Source: an uncultured virus (IMG/VR IMGVR_UViG_3300027708_002678)
Taxonomy: Duplodnaviria > Heunggongvirae > Uroviricota > Caudoviricetes
IMG/VR virus record: IMGVR_UViG_3300027708_002678
Direction: 5' to 3' (one strand)
Length of the DNA: 20,000 bases
The position numbers and the translations under genes were made by a program. Within the stretch, counting starts at the first letter, position 1. Each line of letters opens with the position of its first letter. Under the pieces are notes generated by a model, which was given only the letters and a program-made list of their open reading frames with translations, made no database searches and was not told the DNA's origin. Shown in pieces: positions 1 to 14,930 of this stretch.

Positions 1-841
1 CATCGTCACTAATACCTTCTTCTCCGGTTGGTTCTTCACCACCTTCTTCATCAGGGTTAAAATCACCCATACCTTCTTCTTCAGCCCCTTCAATTTTGTC
101 AACAATCTCTTCTTTATCATCTTCGTCCATAGATTCTAAATCTAACGCCGATAAAATTGAGTTGATAACGTATTTTGAATCTTTAGAAGTCATTTCATCT
201 TTACCTTCTTCAGTTTCTTGGAACGCTCTTAATTTTTGAGCTAACTTACCTGTTAATTTTTGAATAGATTTTAAAGTAACTTCTTCATTATCATCATCTT
301 CAACATCTACATCTACATCAACATCTTCAGGAGCCGGAGCCGGTTCTTGTTCAGGTGCTGGTGCAGGTGCCGGAGATGGTGCAGGTGCCGGAGCAGGTGC
401 AGGTGCCGGAGCTGGCGCCGCTTGTTCTGATGTTTCACCACCATTCATTTTTAAAATATACTTAGTAGCCTCTTGAGGACTTTCGTAAAATAAATTAACA
501 TTCTTTTCGTTACCTTCATTAACATTAACTTCTTTAGCAACTAAATTAAGTCTTTTTAATGCTTGAGAATATGATGAATAGTATTTTCTATTTTTCATAG
601 GCTCCATATAATCAAACTCATTAGTTGATTCAGTTAAACTACACTTAAGTACATATCCACTTTTTTCTTTATCAATTTTATAAGTTTTACCATTAGCTAA
701 AACTTTAGTATATTCAGTAGATTTATCCTCATTAATTGGCGTAGGTATATTTTCTTTGTATCTAGCGATTTCCATAATACGTTGGATTTTATCCATTCCT
801 TGTAGTTTTTCGCTACCAACCGGTCTTAAATTGTTTCCCAT
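1..841 (-). CDS. Hypothetical acidic, Pro/Ala-rich phage protein (partial; runs off the window edge), probably virion-associated
   Basis: ATG at 841; open frame MGNNLRPVGSEKLQGMDKIQRIMEIARY...APAPAPAP...EDVDVDVD... to position 1. TATTTATA motif upstream (873-880). Absent from the ORF track because it is truncated. Confidence 0.8.
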   Translation of the reverse strand, partial: MGNNLRPVGSEKLQGMDKIQRIMEIARYKENIPTPINEDKSTEYTKVLANGKTYKIDKEKSGYVLKCSLTESTNEFDYMEPMKNRKYYSSYSQALKRLNLVAKEVNVNEGNEKNVNLFYESPQEATKYILKMNGGETSEQAAPAPAPAPAPAPAPSPAPAPAPEQEPAPAPEDVDVDVDVEDDDNEEVTLKSIQKLTGKLAQKLRAFQETEEGKDEMTSKDSKYVINSILSALDLESMDEDDKEEIVDKIEGAEEEGMGDFNPDEEGGEEPTGEEGISDD

Positions 842-5045: not shown

Positions 5046-6281
5046 TTAAGCAACCTCTTCTATTTTAGGTAACATTTGACCTAAAGATTCAAGATTAGGA
5101 CATTGTTGTGAATCTTCACCCATTGCTTTGAAGAATTTATCATTTTGAACTAAATAATTATTTTGAGTTTCACCAATAATAAAAACTAACGCACCGACTG
5201 CATATGGTCTTGCAATTTTTAAAAAGTCTTCAGGAAGATTAATACAACCATATGATTTGTTAAATTTAGAAGTACCTAAATATTGTTCAACAGTTTTTAT
5301 AAATGAATCCGGAATACTTTCAGATTTTGGTGATGCACTACTACCCATAGCTTTTTTAAGTTCTCGCATTGCTTTTACTCTTGGAGCTTCATTATAAAAT
5401 CCGTGAATAGCGTTTGCTAAACTTTCGCCGTCTAAAGTTGTTACATTAAAGATATTATTATCACCACCAACATAATCCTCATCAGTTTTTAACGCATTAA
5501 TAGAATAAATTCCTTTAGGAAAAAATCTTGATTTATTTTTATTTATATAATCGTAAATTAATTCCTTATCATATTTTTTACCACCACCAGTTTTATCTTT
5601 ATATTCTTGTGATTTCACATCATATTTAAAACCCGCAGCATTGGCATATTCGTCCCAAGACCATAATGCTTTAGCTATTGATTTAGCGTCTTGAGATTGA
5701 GCATTTAACCCATCTATCGTATATGATTTAGCAACAAAATCGCCTTTTTTGTTAAACAAATAAATGTTATTATCTCTTGTATCAATAACGAAAAAATTTC
5801 TATTACTAAATTTAGGTCGTATACCAACATATGAAATTTCACAAGCACTTCTTACAGGAACACCATTAGAAATTAATTCTCCACCAACTTTTTGATATTG
5901 ACTCATTTTTGTCAAATCAACCCCTTTAGTACTAGGTATTGAAGGACAAAAATTTTGAGATGTTTTATCATCTTTTTTAATTGGTGTTTCAGGTTTTTTA
6001 ATTTGCATAGTCTTATCACCAATAACTTGTTTAATACTAGTTATTGATTTATGATTTTTAGCCTCTTTCCAATTAGGGTACTTGTCACCATATTTTGTAT
6101 TTTCTTTACCTTTAAAATAATATTTACCATTTTCAAATTTATAATCATACGCATTATCGTGGTCAGTAACTATAATTGGAGACACACCTTGTTCACTTAA
6201 ATAGTGACGTTTAGTTGCACTTTCGTGAAGATTTAATATTCTATTTTTTTCTTCTTCGTTAATTATAAATAAATTTTTCAT
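5046..6281 (-). CDS. Probable virion protein with a C-terminal L,D-transpeptidase (YkuD)-like domain
   Basis: Start re-assigned to ATG 6281 (MKNLFIINEEEKNRILNLHESATKR), just after the upstream stop. Motifs FFVID..., PKGIYSI, AIHG...SYGCINL. Confidence 0.7.
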   Translation of the reverse strand: MKNLFIINEEEKNRILNLHESATKRHYLSEQGVSPIIVTDHDNAYDYKFENGKYYFKGKENTKYGDKYPNWKEAKNHKSITSIKQVIGDKTMQIKKPETPIKKDDKTSQNFCPSIPSTKGVDLTKMSQYQKVGGELISNGVPVRSACEISYVGIRPKFSNRNFFVIDTRDNNIYLFNKKGDFVAKSYTIDGLNAQSQDAKSIAKALWSWDEYANAAGFKYDVKSQEYKDKTGGGKKYDKELIYDYINKNKSRFFPKGIYSINALKTDEDYVGGDNNIFNVTTLDGESLANAIHGFYNEAPRVKAMRELKKAMGSSASPKSESIPDSFIKTVEQYLGTSKFNKSYGCINLPEDFLKIARPYAVGALVFIIGETQNNYLVQNDKFFKAMGEDSQQCPNLESLGQMLPKIEEVA

Positions 6282-6282
6282 A

Positions 6283-7101
6283 TTATTTCGGAGTTGTTGG
6301 GGTATAACCCTTAAATTCAGGGAATGATTTAGCTTTGAACTGTGAACCCGCAGCTGTCGGTGCTCCCGCAGTTGGTGGATTAGTTCCAGCACCCGGTTGC
6401 CCTATTAAATCATTGATATCGATTTCAGAATATCCTGAACCTCCACCAGCAGCTACACCACTATTTTCTGTACCGGTTTTTTGACCTCCGGTATTAGCAC
6501 CTGTAGTTTGAGCACCTGTTGATGCACCTTGAACACCAGTTTCAGCGGTTTTCTTAATTGCTGCCGATGACGCGTCGGTAGTATTGTTGGTTGGTTGAGT
6601 TGTAGTAGTTGTTGTGGTTGCGTTTGTATCTGTTTTTGGTAAATTTTGTAATGACGATAAAATACTTGCAGATGTTTTAGGTCCATATTTACCATCCGGA
6701 GTTAATCCGGCTTGAGATTTTGTATTTAATAAAGTTTGTAATTCAACAATTGAAGGGTATTTAACCCCTATTTTAATAGGTGTCACTGGTGGTGGTGGTG
6801 TTGTTGCTGCCGGTGGAGTAGTTCCTGCAGCTGTTGGTGGAGTAGTTCCTGCTGCTGTTGGTGGAGTAGTTCCTGTGTTAGCACCTGTAACACCACCAAT
6901 TTCTACACCAGGTTTAGACCCACCAATCGTATTTAGAGATTGTTTAATAGCATCAACCACTTTTGGGTCTAAATTTCCATAATTCCCTGAGTCAATGTTT
7001 CCAGCAATAGTTTTAACATCCTGTTCAGAAATAACAATACCTCTTTTATACCCCAAAAGGTATTTCATATTTTCAATTTCTTTTAATATATTTTTTTTCA
7101 T
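6283..7101 (-). CDS. Low-complexity Thr/Pro/Gly-rich protein with a peptidoglycan-binding (PG_binding_1-like) domain
   Basis: 'IKIGVKYPSIVELQTLLN...LTPDGKYGPKT'; TTPPTAAG repeats. Confidence 0.7.
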   Translation of the reverse strand: MKKNILKEIENMKYLLGYKRGIVISEQDVKTIAGNIDSGNYGNLDPKVVDAIKQSLNTIGGSKPGVEIGGVTGANTGTTPPTAAGTTPPTAAGTTPPAATTPPPPVTPIKIGVKYPSIVELQTLLNTKSQAGLTPDGKYGPKTSASILSSLQNLPKTDTNATTTTTTTQPTNNTTDASSAAIKKTAETGVQGASTGAQTTGANTGGQKTGTENSGVAAGGGSGYSEIDINDLIGQPGAGTNPPTAGAPTAAGSQFKAKSFPEFKGYTPTTPK

Positions 7102-7817
7102 TATCTTGGTCTATTTGCGTTTGCTTGTAATTGTTTTATTGCATCATTAAGTTGGTCTGAAGTCATACCAACTTGTTGTTGTGCTTGAGCGATACCTCCA
7201 GCGGGTGTTCCTGTTGTTGGAGTTGTTGTCCCAGCAGCAGCTGCTGGTGGTGTTGTAACCTCTGATTTAGGAGTATCTTGTGGTTTACCATTTAATTTTT
7301 CATTAATTTTTTGTAACAAACCGGAATCCATAATACCTGTTTCAGGTAAACCTAAGAATTTTTGAATAGCCTTAGTATTTTCAGTTGTTTTAGCAACAAT
7401 TTGTTGTTTATATTGTTGTAATTTTTTTGCCTTGTCATCAGTTGTTACCGCAGTTTTAAATTCAGGGTCATTACAAGAATATTTTTCAGATTTATTATTG
7501 GCAACAGGTTGTTTACGTTTATAACCATTATTATAATACACATAACCTTTTATTATATATGCTGTCGACCCGTCTGATAATTTAGTTGGTTTAACCCCTT
7601 GACTAGGGACACACGAATATATTCCTTCCCAATTTTTTTCTCTAGCAAGACCATCTTTCTTACCAGCACCTGCTTGAGCATTAAATCCAAGTGGATTATT
7701 TGGTATTGCTCCAAATGGTGAAGTTTGTTCATTCAAATATTGACGTTTTGTTGCACTCTCGTGAATATTTAAAATTCTATTTTTTTCTTCTTCGTCTAAG
7801 AAATATAATTTTTTCAT
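7101..7817 (-). CDS. Probable virion protein with EEKNRIL leader and a possible PG-binding-like segment
   Basis: N-terminus MKKLYFLDEEEKNRILNIHESATKR; 'AIQKFLGLPETGIMD'; TATTTATA upstream (7831-7838). Confidence 0.65.
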   Translation of the reverse strand: MKKLYFLDEEEKNRILNIHESATKRQYLNEQTSPFGAIPNNPLGFNAQAGAGKKDGLAREKNWEGIYSCVPSQGVKPTKLSDGSTAYIIKGYVYYNNGYKRKQPVANNKSEKYSCNDPEFKTAVTTDDKAKKLQQYKQQIVAKTTENTKAIQKFLGLPETGIMDSGLLQKINEKLNGKPQDTPKSEVTTPPAAAAGTTTPTTGTPAGGIAQAQQQVGMTSDQLNDAIKQLQANANRPR

Positions 7818-10126: not shown

Positions 10127-10157
10127 TTTGGATTTATCCAAAAATGTATTATCTTTG
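10127..10157 (+). promoter_or_regulatory. Bacteroidota-type promoter for the tmRNA
   Basis: TTTG (10127-10130), 19 nt, TATCTTTG (10150-10157), 14 nt before the tmRNA 5' end. Confidence 0.75.
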
Positions 10158-10171
10158 TGGTATCAAAATAT

Positions 10172-10565
10172 GGGAGCGACACGGAATTGATTATTAGTAA
10201 TAGTTATTCGGGGCACGTAGTGAGATGTTCTCTATCACTTAAATCTATGGGTACAACAATTTAGACGGAAACGTTTTAAACAAAATGGCTCTAGTAGGTC
10301 TTGTACGTCAAGACGAGCTTGTGAACGTAGCGTAAGCAAACTCACATTGGGGTCGGTGGACATATAACCCAGCAACAGGAGTCCCTACAAAGGTGTGGTA
10401 CCTATCCGAAAAGGTACAAGTGGAGGATTAGTTCTCAGTAAACCAAACCACTCTAAAAATAAGGGAATTGTGAAATTTTGGATTGTTAGCTTAAACAATA
10501 TCCTAAACGTGTAGTCCTTAATAGGTAGTACAAATAAGACCGGAGTTCGAGTCTCCGCGCTTCCA
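10172..10565 (+). ncRNA. ssrA: tmRNA (one-piece); predicted tag ORF 10267-10335, (A)GNVLNKMALVGLVRQDELVNVA*
   Basis: Acceptor stem GGGAGCG/CGCTTCC with the G3-U Ala determinant and discriminator A; T-arm CGGAG-TTCGAGT-CTCCG; UAG-NN-resume context; smpB 1 kb away. CCA is not encoded. Confidence 0.92.
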
Positions 10566-10600
10566 CTTCCACCGGAGAGTCCCGACACCTCCATCAAAAG

Positions 10601-11116: not shown

Positions 11117-11578
11117 TTAATTTTCGTCATCATCAAACATTCCCATTTCATCACCCCAAGATTGTAAAAAATCTTGTTCTTCTTCGTGGCTAGGTTCCTC
11201 ATCATCTTTAGTATATTCCCAAGCTTGAACTTCATTCTTAAATTTATTAAATGAAAAATTAATTTCGTCTAAATCAAAACCTAATTTATAATCATTAAAA
11301 ACATTTTTCATATCATCTTTAATGTTATGTTTCATATATCCAACCATAACTTTGAAATACTTACGTAAATGATTTTCATTAAATGGTTCTCCAATAACTT
11401 CATCTAAAACGTGTTGGAAATGAGCGTCTATATAAAACTCCCAAGCTTTAGATAATGTTAAAACTTTTTTGTTTGAACCTAAACTATCATCTTCTTTAAT
11501 CACATTTTTTTTACCTGAGTGCATCTCAAGGATTCTATTTTTCTCTTCTTGAGAAATGTTATTTAACAAATTTTTCAT
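11117..11578 (-). CDS. Hypothetical protein with EEKNRILEMH leader
   Basis: MKNLLNNISQEEKNRILEMHS; TATTTATA upstream (11595-11602). Confidence 0.7.
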   Translation of the reverse strand: MKNLLNNISQEEKNRILEMHSGKKNVIKEDDSLGSNKKVLTLSKAWEFYIDAHFQHVLDEVIGEPFNENHLRKYFKVMVGYMKHNIKDDMKNVFNDYKLGFDLDEINFSFNKFKNEVQAWEYTKDDEEPSHEEEQDFLQSWGDEMGMFDDDEN

Positions 11579-11621: not shown

Positions 11622-12059
11622 TCATTTCAAGTCTCTTTTCATATCTCTATCAATGTCCCGAGATTTTATACTATCTCGTTTATCGTGGAGTTTTTTCCCT
11701 TTGGCAAGAGCAATCTCCATCTTAACTAATCCGGTGTCATTTATGAAGACACGATAAGGAATGATGGTTGTCCCGTTGATTAACTCACTCTCCAACTTAT
11801 TCAGTTCTTTTCTCTTGGCTAATAGTTTTCTATCCTTAACGGTCTCGTGGAATGACCCAAACCCATAATCTGAGATGTTCATTCCTTTAACAAATAACTC
11901 ATTATTATTGAAATAACAATAACTTTCCGAGATGGAGACCTTTCCCTGACGGATGGATTTCACTTCTGAACCAACTAGTTTGATTCCCACAATTAAAGTT
12001 TCCAAGAAGGAATATTCAAACTTGGCTTTCTTATTGACTATGTTAATTGATTTTTTCAT
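11622..12059 (-). CDS. smpB: SsrA-binding protein SmpB
   Basis: NKKAKFEY, GIKLVGSEVKSIR, RKLL, ALAKGKKLHDKR motifs; start re-assigned to ATG 12059 (MKKSINIVNKK). Confidence 0.95.
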   Translation of the reverse strand: MKKSINIVNKKAKFEYSFLETLIVGIKLVGSEVKSIRQGKVSISESYCYFNNNELFVKGMNISDYGFGSFHETVKDRKLLAKRKELNKLESELINGTTIIPYRVFINDTGLVKMEIALAKGKKLHDKRDSIKSRDIDRDMKRDLK

Positions 12060-12063
12060 ATGA

Positions 12064-12094
12064 CAAAGATAATATAAAAATTGATATAAACAAA
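12064..12094 (-). promoter_or_regulatory. Bacteroidota-type promoter, probably giving a leaderless smpB mRNA
   Basis: TTTG-N19-TATCTTTG-TCAT-ATG on the minus strand. Confidence 0.7.
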
Positions 12095-12153
12095 AAACCC
12101 CAACCAATTAAATGGTGGGGTTTTTATAATTTTATTTTTTTTAATAAAATATA

Positions 12154-12561
12154 CTATCTAGGTCCTAAATCATATTCATTATCATCTTCATCTTCATCAT
12201 CATTACTATCTTCAACAGGAGTCACACTTAGTATGTTAAATCTTTTAGAAAATTTAGGAATTTTTGTTACATTAATTATAGATGAACTACTTCCAAATTC
12301 TGTTGAGTATCTTACTATCACTTTCTCATCATTACTATCTTCAACAGGATTTACACTTCGTATATTAAATCTTTTAGAAAATTTAGGAATTTCTTTTACA
12401 TCAATTATAGATGAACTACTTCCAAATTCTGTTGAGTATCTTACTATTACTTCCACACTTTCATTTATTGTTTCTTTAGTAATAATACTCTTTTTATTTG
12501 AGTGCATCTCAAGTATTCTATTTTTTTCACCTTGTGATATATCATTAAATAAATTTTTCAT
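12154..12561 (-). CDS. Hypothetical protein with EKNRILEMH leader and an internal 43-aa duplication
   Basis: MKNLFNDISQGEKNRILEMHS; VIVRYSTEFGSSSSII...PVEDSND occurs twice; TATTTATA upstream (12575-12582). Confidence 0.65.
   Translation of the reverse strand: MKNLFNDISQGEKNRILEMHSNKKSIITKETINESVEVIVRYSTEFGSSSSIIDVKEIPKFSKRFNIRSVNPVEDSNDEKVIVRYSTEFGSSSSIINVTKIPKFSKRFNILSVTPVEDSNDDEDEDDNEYDLGPR
12197..12451. repeat. Tandem duplication, 129-bp period, two copies
   Basis: Near-identical copies start at 12197 and 12326. Confidence 0.9.
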
Positions 12562-12629: not shown

Positions 12630-13478
12630 GCTTAATACGATGAGAATACTCGTCTTATTGAGAATCTTCGGAAGCATTATTTTTTCGCTTCTTTTCCACC
12701 ATCTTTTGAATGGTAATCCTCATTGCCGATTGGTTAGACCAATCACTCCTTGAGATATCATCTACTCTCTCATTATTCAACTCTCTTCAATCTTGCGAAC
12801 TGACTCCGGATTCGACTCCGTAGAGGTTTTTGGCGAGAATACATTCAGACTTGCGGTCATCCTGTGCAACGAACGGCTCGTTACTATGTAGGCAACTTGT
12901 CGACGATACCTGACAGACACTTTTGCTCTTTTCTGTTTAGTTTTTCACCATATTGAAAATAGTTAACGTGTTGTGGATGTGTCCAAGTAGAGGTCTGTCT
13001 TAGGCTTCATCATCTTTTGGACGAAGAAATACCAACCTACTCGGTAGAGTGTCCCCACTCTCATATTTTAAGAATTCTTCAAATCAAAATCTTGGTAGAT
13101 GTTTGATAAGGATAATGACAGCACCACCTGTTACTTATCTTGTCTTTCGACTTTAAGATTTCTCTCATATTGGAACCCGCAATAATTAAGTTGGATAACC
13201 TAACTTCTTACTTGATTCCTATCACTTATTCCTGTTGGAGTTCCCCCCTCAACCGAAAGACCCACATCTCCCGGTCACCCAACCACTTTCTCTAAAGCGT
13301 CGCCCTCAATACTGAAGGTCAGATGGTATGTGACTTGTATACTCGAGTCCCATTTCTGAGACCGCAAACCTGTTAACACAACAGATTCACTTTAGCCCGG
13401 TTTCCCGGTTTATTTAAGGATGATATACCACCCATTATCGTTTTTATAATACCTAAGTACTATATGGATAATCTAAAA
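12630..13478 (-). ncRNA. Large structured non-coding RNA, GOLLD-like (boundaries approximate)
   Basis: About 850 nt with no ORF of 60 aa or more, visibly more GC-rich than its flanks, with its own promoter and terminator. Many hairpins, several with GNRA loops (CCGG-GAAA-CCGG, GUC-GAAA-GAC, CGCAAG). Size, closeness to tRNA-like genes and a recalled resemblance of the 3' end (AAUAAU...AUUCUCA) suggest GOLLD; the family is not verified. Confidence 0.7.
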
Positions 13479-13516
13479 TGTTTAAGAACGTTTTGAGGTT
13501 TCCCTCATTTGTTTTA

Positions 13517-13547
13517 CAAAGGTAAGTGATTTTTTTGAGAAGTCAAA
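13517..13547 (-). promoter_or_regulatory. Bacteroidota-type promoter for the large ncRNA
   Basis: TTTG (13547-13544), 19 nt, TACCTTTG (13524-13517); boxA-like CGTTCTTAAACA follows at 13490-13479. Confidence 0.75.
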
Positions 13548-13567
13548 CACTTTTGTATTTTTTTTTA

Positions 13568-13765
13568 TTATTTAATATTTTGTAGTTCCCAATCAAAATT
13601 TTTTCCCCTCATAACATCATCTGTCATTAACTTACTTTTATGTAAATCCCAAATAACCTCAATCTTTAAAAATGGGTTAAAACCACTAATTAATAAAAGA
13701 TATTGTTCATTATTGTTTGTTTTATTAGTTATAATATAATAACCACTTTCAAGTTTTGTGTCCAT
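13568..13765 (-). CDS. Small hypothetical protein
   Basis: 65-aa ORF with an A-rich leader, in the same orientation as its neighbours. Confidence 0.5.
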   Translation of the reverse strand: MDTKLESGYYIITNKTNNNEQYLLLISGFNPFLKIEVIWDLHKSKLMTDDVMRGKNFDWELQNIK

Positions 13766-13802
13766 TTTTTTTATTTTTTTTATTTTTTTTATTTTTTTTT
13801 AA

Positions 13803-13921
13803 TCTGTGATAAGACCTTAAGATTTACAAATTCGTAGGTCACCCATTCTTTACTACCTAAAACTCGCACTCCCGGCAGGGATAGTCTGCTGTAATAGGTC
13901 TATCTGCTATCTTATCACAGA
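13803..13921 (-). ncRNA. Putative ~119-nt structured RNA of unknown family
   Basis: Perfect 12-bp terminal inverted repeat TCTGTGATAAGA/TCTTATCACAGA, 7 nt downstream of the tRNA-like array; strand inferred from context. Confidence 0.5.
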
Positions 13922-13928
13922 ATAAATT

Positions 13929-14017
13929 ATGTGTGTGTACGCTCTACCATTATAGCTAAACCTTGGTCATCACGATTACGGTTGTTGGAATCGAACCAAC
14001 GACTTTACACTACACAT
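13929..14017 (-). ncRNA. Circularly permuted tRNA-like RNA (YrlA-like topology)
   Basis: 5' ATGTGTAGTGTA, T-arm GTTGG-TTCGATT-CCAAC, loop-closed acceptor AACC...GGTT, TA, D-arm GCT-ATAATGGTAG-AGC, 3' TACACACACAT pairing with the 5' end. Confidence 0.75.
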
Positions 14018-14021
14018 TTTG

Positions 14022-14113
14022 TGGTATCGGCAGGGTTCGAACCTACGGCACAGAGTCTTTCGTTACTCCTGCTCTACCAAAGGAAGACGAATCCCCCACT
14101 GAGCTACAATACC
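14022..14113 (-). tRNA. Atypical tRNA-like RNA with a D-loop hairpin insertion and a non-canonical 8-nt anticodon loop (no assignable isotype)
   Basis: Acceptor GGTATTG/CGATACC-A; D-arm GCTC...GAGC containing GGGGGA-TTCG-TCTTCC; GGAGT-AACGAAAG-ACTCT; T-arm GTAGG-TTCGAAC-CCTGC. Confidence 0.7.
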
Positions 14114-14123
14114 ATTATAAGTT

Positions 14124-14200
14124 AGTGGACGTATGCTCTACCATCTGAGCTACAGCTTTTAATCACCGGAGGGATTTGAATCCTCGACACAACGTCCACC
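14124..14200 (-). ncRNA. Circularly permuted tRNA-like RNA (YrlA-like topology)
   Basis: 5' GGTGGACGT, T-arm GAGGA-TTCAAAT-CCCTC, loop-closed acceptor CGGT-GATTAAAA-GCTG, TA, D-arm GCTC-AGATGGTA-GAGC, 3' ACGTCCACT pairing with the 5' end. Confidence 0.75.
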
Positions 14201-14237
14201 TATATTTTCAATAATTTTAAGAACTTTATTTCTTCTA

Positions 14238-14269
14238 CAAAGATAATACTTTTATTTTAATATATCAAA
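14238..14269 (-). promoter_or_regulatory. Bacteroidota-type promoter for the tRNA-like RNA array
   Basis: TTTG (14269-14266), 20 nt, TATCTTTG (14245-14238); boxA-like AGTTCTTAAAAT at 14225-14214. Confidence 0.75.
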
Positions 14270-14450
14270 TTATTTTAAAAATAATTTTATTAATTGAGTT
14301 AATCCTCCCATACAACATATTCCCGCACAAAAATAACTAAATCCGGGATTTCTACCATTCTCTTTTTGTGTTTTTGCGGAGAATAGGTTTAATCCCATCA
14401 ATCCGAATTGTAATAATACTATTTCCATAATTTTTATAATTTAATGTTTG

Positions 14451-14523
14451 TAGTCAGGACAGGACTCGAACCTGTAACTTTATTCCACTACACGGTTTGC
14501 GTCTACCATTCCGCCACCTGACT
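14451..14523 (-). tRNA. tRNA-like RNA with a Leu-type D-arm and a degenerate anticodon arm (pseudo-tRNA)
   Basis: Perfect acceptor AGTCAGG/CCTGACT-A; D-arm GCGGAATGGTAGACGC; T-arm ACAGG-TTCGAGT-CCTGT. The middle, AAACCGTGTAGTGGAATAAAGTT, cannot form a canonical 5-bp stem with a 7-nt loop. Confidence 0.7.
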
Positions 14524-14675
14524 ATGTTTCGTTAATGTTAAAAACTGATTCAATCCTCCTAAAAAACACTAACTTGCTACTTACTGATATTGGCTCGCCC
14601 ATCCATTTCTCATATTGATTTACCTGAAACTTCTTCGGGTTGTTGATTGACCACTCCCGCTTACTCAAGTAGTTT

Positions 14676-14930
14676 TTACATACTCATCATCCAACCCATT
14701 CGGTTTTGTTCTTGATACTGAGAATAAGTACATTTTCTCATTGACTTATAATCCGGTCTCAACTTAGTGTGAGTTGGGTATTTCTTCTCGTGTTCTTTCT
14801 GTTCTCTCATAACACGAGCATACGCCTCTCTTTTACTTGGTGCCCACACATCATTAAATCCACCACCAATCCAATTAAACAAATATAGGTATTCACCATT
14901 AACACTTCTATACAATTTCTCTTTAGCCAT
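14676..14930 (-). CDS. Small basic hypothetical protein
   Basis: 84-aa ORF downstream of a consensus promoter. Confidence 0.7.
   Translation of the reverse strand: MAKEKLYRSVNGEYLYLFNWIGGGFNDVWAPSKREAYARVMREQKEHEKKYPTHTKLRPDYKSMRKCTYSQYQEQNRMGWMMSM

Follow-up and report, generated by a model that had tools for sequence, protein, structure and literature searches.

A predicted tRNA-Phe look-alike with an added D-loop arm in very large freshwater phages

Known tRNA mimics and the look-alike

Known tRNA mimics include the tRNA-like domain of tmRNA, YrlA RNA and the tRNA-like structures of viruses. To our knowledge, no described tRNA mimic combines the complete tRNA order and free ends with an added helical arm in the D-loop, and a full-text literature search yielded no description of a D-loop-armed tRNA-Phe look-alike. 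Anticodon loops of 8 nt are known from the frameshift suppressors sufD and sufJ and from yeast mitochondrial tRNA-Thr, and the look-alike presented here resembles these in having one surplus nucleotide in the anticodon loop; it differs in that the surplus base is on the 5' side of a position held mostly by C in place of U33, in that the Y and R residues around GAAA covary, and in the arm of its D-loop. The non-proteinogenic tRNA-Gly of Staphylococcus is a chargeable tRNA that is kept from translation by changes in its body; in the phages that carry the look-alike, by contrast, no aminoacyl-tRNA transferase was found, the profiles Leu_Phe_trans and FemAB each having matched in 0/8 complete genomes. 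YrlA is a non-decoding mimic of the tRNA elbow, reported from phages too; YrlA of M. smegmatis is reported to be cleaved by RNase P and to receive CCA, and YrlA RNAs are assigned by their position within ~4 kb of a Ro60 (TROVE) gene (PMC4201824). In YrlA the order is circularly permuted (T-arm, closed acceptor, D-arm) and there is a link to Ro60, whereas the look-alike has the normal tRNA order and free ends. Its likeness to YrlA would lie in mimicry of the tRNA elbow without decoding, and weak YrlA-like modules flank its gene. GOLLD RNAs occur near tRNA islands, and tRNAs sometimes lie inside a GOLLD linker, according to Kretsch et al. (10.1101/2024.12.08.627333). The look-alike resembles such GOLLD- and ROOL-linked tRNAs in being encoded beside a phage GOLLD RNA, but it lies upstream of the GOLLD promoter and outside the GOLLD contigs, and it is no ordinary tRNA.

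Compared with canonical tRNA-Phe(GAA), the look-alike shares a 7-bp acceptor, A73, the D-stem UAGCUCAG..GGUAGAGCA, a GUGYC variable loop, the T-loop UUCGA and a GAA that is followed by A. It departs from it in a D-loop helix of 16-19 extra nt, an 18-nt anticodon arm and an 8-nt anticodon loop; the copy in the window also lacks U33, and the look-alike coexists with a normal tRNA-Phe in 7/7 genomes examined. Its conservation extends over two clades of ~310-320-kb phages, always alongside that normal tRNA-Phe. Decoding being unlikely for this conserved extra RNA, some component of the infected cell may be expected to read 'tRNA-Phe' on it, and the look-alike could serve as a probe for a tRNA-Phe-specific host factor that the phages need to engage.

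The window, by which we mean the whole stretch of 20,000 nt that was analysed, is part of an 89.9-kb record estimated to hold 30% of a genome; complete relatives measure 309-322 kb. The look-alike occupies 14022..14113 on the minus strand (14113->14022) and comprises 92 nt including the discriminator A at 14022: GGUAUUG UA GCUC AGU [GGGGGA-UUCG-UCUUCC] UUUGGUA GAGC A GGAGU AACGAAAG ACUCU GUGCC GUAGG UUCGAAC CCUGC CGAUACC A. The Rfam tRNA model RF00005 aligns with it end to end at 39.0 bits (gathering score 29, E=3.3e-5 for the window), with a D-loop surplus of 21 nt and an anticodon loop of 8 nt. As read from the sequence, the acceptor stem GGUAUUG/CGAUACC has 7 bp, one U-G among these, and the D-stem is GCUC/GAGC. 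The extra arm, the hairpin GGGGGA-UUCG-UCUUCC (14082..14097, RNA positions 17-32, minus strand), lies as an insert between U16 and G18 of the D-loop and has 6 bp, 2 of these G-U; the UUUGGUA on its 3' side provides G18 and G19. The 18-nt 'anticodon' arm (14052..14069, minus strand, placed by the Rfam alignment) consists of the stem GGAGU/ACUCU and the loop AACGAAAG at 14057-14064, which has 8 nt and no U, hence no U33. A GUGCC variable loop and the T-arm GUAGG-UUCGAAC-CCUGC follow, the latter at 14030..14046 on the minus strand according to the Rfam alignment and to covariation among 22 sequences. The acceptor, D-stem, T-arm, D-loop hairpin and 8-nt loop without U33 that a preliminary description had reported are thus confirmed, on the minus strand.

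The look-alike therefore has the 7-bp acceptor, D-stem, T-arm and above-gathering score of a cloverleaf, while it departs from a decoding tRNA at two places: its D-loop, with a 6-bp hairpin inside, measures 26 nt where ~7-11 nt are expected, and its anticodon loop has 8 nt and no U in place of the 7-nt loop, U33 and 17-nt arm. The tRNA core is formed by U8-A14, G15-C48, G22-G46 and the contacts of G18/G19 with the T-loop, and all of these partners are present in the look-alike (T-loop UUCGA). In known tRNA structures residue 17 of the D-loop faces the solvent at the elbow. We picture an L-shaped RNA that would keep what tRNA-handling enzymes require and would not be built for codon reading, with an extra arm of 5-7 bp at D-loop position 17 and an 18-nt anticodon arm whose loop might be closable as Y-GAAA-R. 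The insert alone folds at -5.5 kcal/mol, and 31/2000 shuffles are equally stable. Left unconstrained, the 92 nt take a minimum-free-energy fold (-30.4 kcal/mol, z -1.38) other than the cloverleaf, whose computed energy, extra arm included, is -25.8 kcal/mol. ARAGORN labels the look-alike tRNA-Thr(GGU), having taken the G18G19 region of the D-loop as the anticodon; its calls of orthologues conflict (Thr GGU in genomes G022 and G001, Pro UGG in G032), and the label was treated as an artefact for this reason.

Conservation of the extra arm

Scanning the IMG/VR viral records with the pattern TAGCUCAGUGG-N12-30-GGUAGAGCA returned 37 viral loci, with an insert of 15-17 nt in 37/37. Thirty-three of these belong to the type found in the window (class A), two are distant relatives (L010, L018) and two are a different, tRNA(CAU)-like RNA. 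Additional scans contributed a further class-A locus (L060) and two metagenome copies, so that class A comprises at least 34 viral records and at least 24 distinct sequences. The wider pattern TAGCUCAGU-N14-34-GGUAGAGCA gave 90 viral loci and at least 121 metagenome loci; a first reading took in 80 loci, and later parsing covered all 90 viral and at least 121 metagenome loci. The metagenome scan also returned archaeal-looking tRNAs with D-loop inserts. A blastn search of positions 13400-14700 against GenBank phages produced no match. When one genome of each of 185,579 species was scanned for the 8-nt-loop pattern, 32 matches were obtained, 31 of which were re-read; four lay in tRNA genes, and a D-loop insert was present in 0. 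Within the scope of these 185,579 genomes, one per species, the look-alike is confined to phages, and the records collected identify it, by sequence, as a small RNA gene that is conserved in freshwater phages of very large size.

Among the matches listed, the D-loop hairpin is found at the same site in 24/24 distinct class-A sequences, and the minimum-free-energy structure of the insert is a hairpin in 24/24 class-A and 18/18 class-C distinct sequences. Class C comprises at least 18 distinct sequences from a second clade of ~320-kb phages and shares with class A the D-arm, the GUGCC variable loop, the type of T-arm and the insertion site. The sequence of the arm is wholly different between the classes, the class-C hairpins including AACUC-UUCG-GGGUU, UGUUAAG-GUGA-CUUAACA, UGUGUGG-CAUUA-CCACACA and UGUGAAG-CAUGA-CUUCACA. 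Two further forms are environmental: class B, with two GNRA mini-hairpins in the D-loop and the anticodon loop CUGAAAA, and L199, with a UUCG-capped arm.

Covariation was assessed on an alignment of 22 distinct sequences (21 of class A and L010). The cloverleaf with the arm is paired in 97.4% of cells, and double changes occur in 12 pairs; 0/500 shuffles reach these values, and slid controls are 41-50% paired. In the T-arm, 3/5 pairs show a compensatory change and pair 51-63 is unpaired in 7/22 sequences. The helix of the extra arm is paired in 97.7-100% of cells. Inside class A it varies mostly by exchange of G-C for G-U or A-U for G-U, and one pair is compensatory; taken by itself the class-A alignment lends modest support to the arm as a helix. 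Class C adds to this. In its long-hairpin subgroup (9/18 sequences), the arm shows compensatory change at 4/7 pairs, with pairing in 95.2% of cells; in the same nine sequences the acceptor, D and T helices hardly vary and show no compensatory change. Compensatory change in 4/7 arm pairs on a near-invariant body indicates that the arm is selected as a helix.

These results bear out the earlier suggestion that the added hairpin is selected and not decayed, which now rests on 24/24 class-A sequences among the matches listed and on the 4/7 compensatory pairs of class C. The homologue alignment that had been proposed as a check of the inserted helix, paired in the proportion given above, revealed neither random unpaired insertions nor a one-off copy. 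The UUCG tetraloop, which had been singled out as a feature of the RNA, did not hold up: the loop of the arm is not conserved, UUUA being commonest, followed by UUCG and UUCA, with UUAU, GNRA loops and pentaloops also occurring. Binding by the arm, should it have such a role, would therefore not be sequence-specific across the group.

The same observations bear on the idea that the D-loop of a tRNA-Phe gene holds an intron or a mobile hairpin here, which would either be removed or inactivate the gene. Removal of the 16-nt hairpin would indeed give a normal 10-nt D-loop, and the archaeal-looking tRNAs of the metagenome scan carry inserts in the D-loop as well. Against this, what lies between U16 and UUU is a plain hairpin that does not have the bulge-helix-bulge of the archaeal type, a hairpin-free class-A copy was found in 0/24 distinct sequences among the matches listed, the helix is kept through compensatory change, the anticodon loop would still have 8 nt after removal, and no repeat copies of the hairpin occur elsewhere. 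We regard this as scarcely credible and as the least probable of the explanations considered.

The anticodon loop, tRNA-Phe origin and decoding

In class A the anticodon loop has 8 nt and the anticodon arm 18 nt in 24/24 distinct sequences among the matches listed. The loop reads NNYGAAAR in 23/24 of them, the exception ending in U (AACGAAAU); the commonest form is AACGAAAG (14 sequences), followed by CCCGAAAG, UCUGAAAA and UUUGAAAG (2 each) and by CUCGAAAG, UUUGAAAA and AAUGAAAG (1 each). The U33 position is occupied by C in 18/24 distinct class-A sequences among the matches listed. The Y:R residues flanking GAAA are C-G in 17, U-A in 3, U-G in 3 and C-U in 1 of these listed sequences, and their covariation reaches p = 0.0025 in a Fisher test on the 22-sequence alignment, uncorrected for relatedness. 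The independent events behind this covariation are few, and U33/A38 corresponds to the canonical state as well. A sarcin-ricin-like reading of AGUAACGAAAGAC was considered and dropped, as variants such as AGUCCCGAAAGUC are without the motif.

The preliminary description had proposed that the anticodon arm is capped by a GAAA tetraloop. The Y:R covariation in class A is in favour of such a cap, and in class A C33-G38 may close the loop. The energies, however, disfavour the closed C-GAAA-G form, which evaluates at -24.2 kcal/mol and is 1.6 costlier than the open cloverleaf, so that closure rests on covariation and not on energy; moreover, the UGAACA loops of relatives cannot be GNRA loops. GAA is found in the loop in 24/24 class-A and 18/18 class-C distinct sequences among the matches listed, despite differing stems, and with UGAACA loops in class C, reading of the Phe anticodon by some factor accounts better for this conservation than a GNRA cap does. 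As judged from these loops, the 'GAAA cap' is, in part at least, the Phe anticodon GAA inherited together with A37.

A73 is present in 23/24 class-A sequences among the matches listed, the remaining one having T (L161). G34, A35 and A36 together with the discriminator A73, which we take to be the identity set of tRNA-Phe, are thus all found in the look-alike. The retention of GAA, A73, U20 and the GUGYC variable loop indicates that the RNA derives from tRNA-Phe. In a comparison by global identity, the top two of 25 for the window RNA are tRNA-Phe genes of Bacteroidota (77% and 74%); its identity to the phage's own tRNAs is 59-72%, and to the phage's own tRNA-Phe 67%, so that the margin is small.

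An ordinary tRNA-Phe is nevertheless available to these phages. In 7/7 genomes examined, a tRNA-Phe(GAA) gene whose loop has 7 nt was found in the tRNA island, apart from the look-alike, namely in 5/5 of class A (G000, G004, G019, G022 and G032) and 2/2 of class C (G046 and G047). Four of the class-A genomes have the gene with the loop CUGAAGA and an unusual T-loop, located by Rfam and relaxed ARAGORN at G000:C1:79294-79366, G004:9506-9578, G019:293177-293249 and G022:87132-87204; G032 has another tRNA-Phe(GAA), and in G046 and G047 the tRNA-Phe lies in the tRNA island while the look-alike stands alone ~40 kb off. Default ARAGORN misses the tRNA-Phe(GAA) with the odd T-loop, which Rfam finds, and the look-alike as the phage's only Phe decoder was thereby ruled out. 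With an ordinary tRNA-Phe(GAA) in 7/7 genomes, the look-alike is an extra RNA.

Whether this extra RNA decodes has to be weighed separately. In the known cases, the frameshift suppressors and yeast mitochondrial tRNA-Thr, 8-nt anticodon loops can decode. The look-alike could be a decoding tRNA-Phe isoacceptor, a back-up decoder whose loop and arm make it resistant to host defences that cleave or modify tRNAs. GAA, A37, A73 and all tertiary-pair positions are retained, as such a function would demand, and armed relatives with canonical 7-nt loops exist (CUGAAAA in class B, CUGAACA in class C). Phage tRNAs with altered anticodon loops that evade host nucleases have been reported (PMC10264068, PMC11464382, PMC11555353), and a term search of PMC10264068 gave nothing on Phe or on the D-loop. 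In class C, the anticodon arm measures 15 nt in 4, 16 nt in 9, 17 nt in 4 and 18 nt in 1 of the sequences among the matches listed, and 4/18 class-C sequences, again among the matches listed, have 5 bp with the canonical loop CUGAACA. The canonical arms of class B and of these four class-C sequences, which may decode, imply that the extra arm by itself leaves decoding possible. What speaks against an isoacceptor is the 8-nt loop in 24/24 class-A sequences and the C at the U33 position in 18/24, both among the matches listed, the drift of the class-C arm between 15 and 18 nt, the unpaired T-stem pair 51-63 in 7/22 sequences, and the 7-nt-loop tRNA-Phe that the phage already has in 7/7 genomes examined. 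We think the isoacceptor unlikely. That the RNA is non-decoding, as had been proposed at the outset, is probably right, given the loop of invariably 8 nt, the prevalent C at the U33 position (18/24) and the separate tRNA-Phe (7/7). A hairpin-less relative with an 8-nt loop is labelled by ARAGORN with the 4-base anticodon CGAA, and its records carry GOLLD.

We consider it reasonably probable, on the basis of the sequences compared, that the look-alike is a non-decoding mimic of tRNA-Phe that is matured like a tRNA and recognised by a host factor through GAA and A73. RNase P and the 3'-end machinery would excise it in the same way as the phage's real tRNAs. A host protein, for which PheRS, a tRNA-targeting defence nuclease or a modifier are candidates, would then recognise it as 'tRNA-Phe' through G34, A35, A36 and A73, and the extra arm and the mis-sized loop would keep it out of normal decoding. 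Recognised as tRNA-Phe by such a protein, the look-alike would act as a competitor, a decoy or a dedicated substrate.

The context of the gene is consistent with maturation of this kind. All 22 ARAGORN-called tRNA genes of the record, the look-alike included, have an A/U-rich 5' leader, and most of them have an N73-C-AAA trailer without an encoded CCA; this shared leader and trailer context suggests tRNA-type processing of the look-alike. In class C the gene is preceded at ~10 nt by a TAttTTTG promoter element of its own, is directly followed by a terminator hairpin and lies 40 kb from the tRNA island, which indicates that the look-alike can be an independent gene. As to the partners that the phages themselves might supply, the profile search of eight complete genomes gave 0/8 for the PheRS core and for RtcB, as it did for the two transferase families, and a CCA-enzyme-like gene (PolyA_pol) is present in 3/8 complete genomes.

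Permuted modules and GOLLD beside the gene

The look-alike gene is flanked on both sides by modules that resemble YrlA. Module 1 (14111..14212, minus strand, RF02553 34.6 bits) consists of a T-arm, a short hairpin and a D-arm with the stem GUGGAC/GUCCAC; a possible promoter, TTG-N20-TAtcTTTG, lies ~25 nt upstream of it at 14238..14268 on the minus strand, a single match against 0.73 expected that is not significant alone. Module 2 (13912..14024, minus strand, RF02553 25.3 bits, E 0.014) starts in the 3' trailer of the look-alike. An equivalent of module 1 was found in 12/12 fetched class-A loci (30.1-42.3 bits), abutting the gene in 8 and lying ~140 nt upstream in 4, and the sequence block of module 2 in 6/13 loci compared. 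The modules have the YrlA architecture of T-arm, closed acceptor-like hairpin (of only 3-4 bp), D-arm and enclosing stem, and both score under the RF02553 gathering score of 69. The TROVE (Ro60) profile gave no hit in G000, the record that contains the window (0/1), or in 4 complete genomes (0/4), against 2/14 known genomes in the control. With scores far under the cut-off and TROVE in 0/5, we name them permuted tRNA-like modules and not Y RNAs. The motif GNCGAAN0-1G, given for Ro60 binding by YrlA in PMC4201824, was compared with the loop of the look-alike and rejected; ACGAAAG resembles it with the leading G missing, and the UGAAAA variants do not fit.

The close packing of these elements raises the idea that the look-alike serves solely as processing punctuation, a tRNA-shaped handle by which RNase P and RNase Z would release the neighbouring YrlA-like RNAs. 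The modules do abut the gene on both sides with 0-2 nt of overlap, and the upstream one accompanies it in 12/12 fetched class-A loci. Yet the downstream module is missing in 7/13 loci, in class C the gene stands by itself, with a promoter and a terminator of its own, and a handle of this kind would leave the conservation of GAA, of the extra arm and of the 8-nt loop unexplained. Punctuation as the sole role thus appears highly improbable.

Further downstream, in 5' to 3' order on the minus strand, a 125-nt stem-closed element and then a 65-codon ORF lie between module 2 and the promoter of the GOLLD RNA itself. This promoter, TTGAC-N-TAccTTTG at 13517..13546 (minus strand), is contained in a block that also lies upstream of GOLLD in relatives. 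GOLLD occupies 12637..13510 on the minus strand; RF02032 covers 12637-13044 at 298.8 bits, and the 5' region is inferred to ~13510. A terminator hairpin follows at 12628-12597 (minus strand). The motif TTG-N19-TAnnTTTG, which we take to be the promoter consensus of Bacteroidota, was counted 5 times in the window where 0.76 is expected, and 0/200 shuffles reach 5, so the promoters of the window look Bacteroidota-type. In contigs from four lake metatranscriptome runs, GOLLD extends from ~12645 to 13425-13495, in one case to 13760; one contig runs into adapter sequence at 13457 and another at 12652. A single RNA contig of low depth covers 13806-14009, overlapping module 2, and 14022-14113 is covered by no contig of the four runs. 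Since the GOLLD contigs halt ~500 nt short of the gene and GOLLD has its own promoter at 13546-13517, the look-alike is not part of the GOLLD RNA, and with its gene upstream of that promoter it is not one of the tRNAs internal to a GOLLD linker.

GOLLD is present in 30/33 class-A records, and in the other 3 the gene lies <900 nt from the contig end on the GOLLD side; in 13/13 loci compared, GOLLD follows the look-alike on the same strand at a distance of 526-1036 nt. A dense island of tRNA-derived RNAs adjoins GOLLD, and the look-alike is a candidate GOLLD ligand that could easily be tested. As a partner or cargo of the GOLLD nanocage, its tRNA-shaped body would dock through the arm and the GAAA loop or become enclosed. 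GOLLD also occurs in 4/5 complete class-C genomes, 56-71 kb from the look-alike, and accompanies the hairpin-less relative with the 8-nt loop in its records, and tRNAs are suggested as possible contents of the cage in the cryo-EM paper (10.1101/2024.12.08.627333). Opposed to this are the separate GOLLD promoter, the ~500 nt between the GOLLD contigs and the gene, the 68 kb that separate the two in G001, and the complete class-C-like genome G056, which has the look-alike RNA and no GOLLD. Furthermore, all class-A records belong to one phage clade, so that the linkage may be synteny by descent. We therefore hold a role as GOLLD partner or cargo to be very unlikely. A broader proposal would make the look-alike a dedicated tRNA-Phe-shaped adaptor that either docks to or is enclosed by the GOLLD nanocage through its arm and the closed GAAA loop, or is charged with Phe and, excluded from the ribosome, supplies a non-ribosomal reaction. 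We give this adaptor a distinctly low probability; were its docking to GOLLD true, the look-alike would be the first identified RNA ligand of the cage. The preferred reading remains the tRNA-Phe mimic recognised by a host factor.

The proteins encoded beside the look-alike offer no functional lead: those neighbouring it in the window have no Pfam matches, and the neighbours of the class-C copy are Endonuclease_NS, GH25 and Laminin_G_3. On the upstream side, a further tRNA-like gene lies at 14450..14523 on the minus strand, called tRNA-Tyr(GUA) and having a weak anticodon stem; its orthologue in G032 has 88 nt and a different middle part.

Genes and elements flanking the probable tRNA mimic and GOLLD RNA

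The region between the probable tRNA mimic, a tRNA-Phe-like RNA with a D-loop hairpin, and GOLLD RNA holds two further elements on the minus strand. An element of about 125 nt (window 13803-13925), which has no match in Rfam, is closed by an 11-bp stem (CUGUGAUAAGA...UCUUAUCACAG) and is covered at low depth by one of the RNA contigs from the lake metatranscriptomes. It is kept at two loci recovered in the pattern scans (L081 and L086), and its interior is different at two others (L085 and L087). Between this element and the GOLLD promoter lies a 65-codon ORF (13568-13765), for which Pfam returned nothing; relatives in which the spacer is short lack this ORF. A single RNA contig of high depth, X8, extends from GOLLD through it.

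Upstream of the mimic is a gene called as tRNA-Tyr(GUA) (14450-14523, minus strand), the anticodon stem of which is paired at only 3 of 5 positions. Its orthologue in G032, a related class-A phage genome, is 88 nt long and differs in its middle part, with the acceptor, D and T arms retained. The gene looks like a further tRNA-like RNA with a D-arm of class II (Leu/Tyr type).

The phage also encodes a tmRNA (10172-10568, plus strand; 74.9 bits), for which a promoter motif that looks Bacteroidota-type is present at 10128-10157, and SmpB (11622-12107, minus strand; Pfam E 3e-47), and these adjoin the GOLLD/tRNA-mimic island. Four minus-strand ORFs (5046-6392, 7101-7817, 11117-11578 and 12154-12561), in which no Pfam domains were found, carry a common motif near their N termini, of the form (E/Q)EEKNRIL(N/E)(L/I/M)H(E)S, and appear to be a paralogous family dispersed through the island.

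tRNA genes of the phage

The real tRNA-Phe(GAA) of the phage lies outside the window (G000:C1:79294-79366, in the 89.9-kb record) and has the T-loop GCGUAAC in place of UUCRANY. ARAGORN with default settings overlooked it, and both points apply equally to the gene in the related genomes G004, G019 and G022. The 22 tRNA genes that ARAGORN called in the record, the mimic among them and none encoding CCA, have conserved flanks: on the 5' side the last bases of the leader are AAAAT, AATT or ATTT, and in most of them the 3' trailer is N73-C-AAA(A). A 117-nt match to the Rfam tRNA model, likewise located beyond the window (G000:C1:71863-71979), carries two T-arm-like hairpins in one acceptor stem.

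Other tRNA-shaped RNAs with D-loop inserts

Further tRNA-shaped RNAs with D-loop hairpins were among the matches listed. Those at L020, L021, L179, L152 and L159 comprise a CAU-loop type in a complete 63-kb phage, a tRNA-Lys(UUU) with a D-loop hairpin, an RNA with a GCAA-capped anticodon arm and an RNA with the arm shrunk to a mini-hairpin. In the Phe-type RNAs at L135, L167, L169 and L206 the D-loop bears two mini-hairpins of the GNRA kind, and the anticodon loop is the canonical CUGAAAA. Among the matches listed, the metagenome loci L133-L209 include many archaeal-looking GGGCCCG/GGGUCCG tRNAs, with D-loop inserts of 24-29 nt plus further inserts, and, besides these, long tandem arrays of a D-arm-like unit of 26 or 34 nt.
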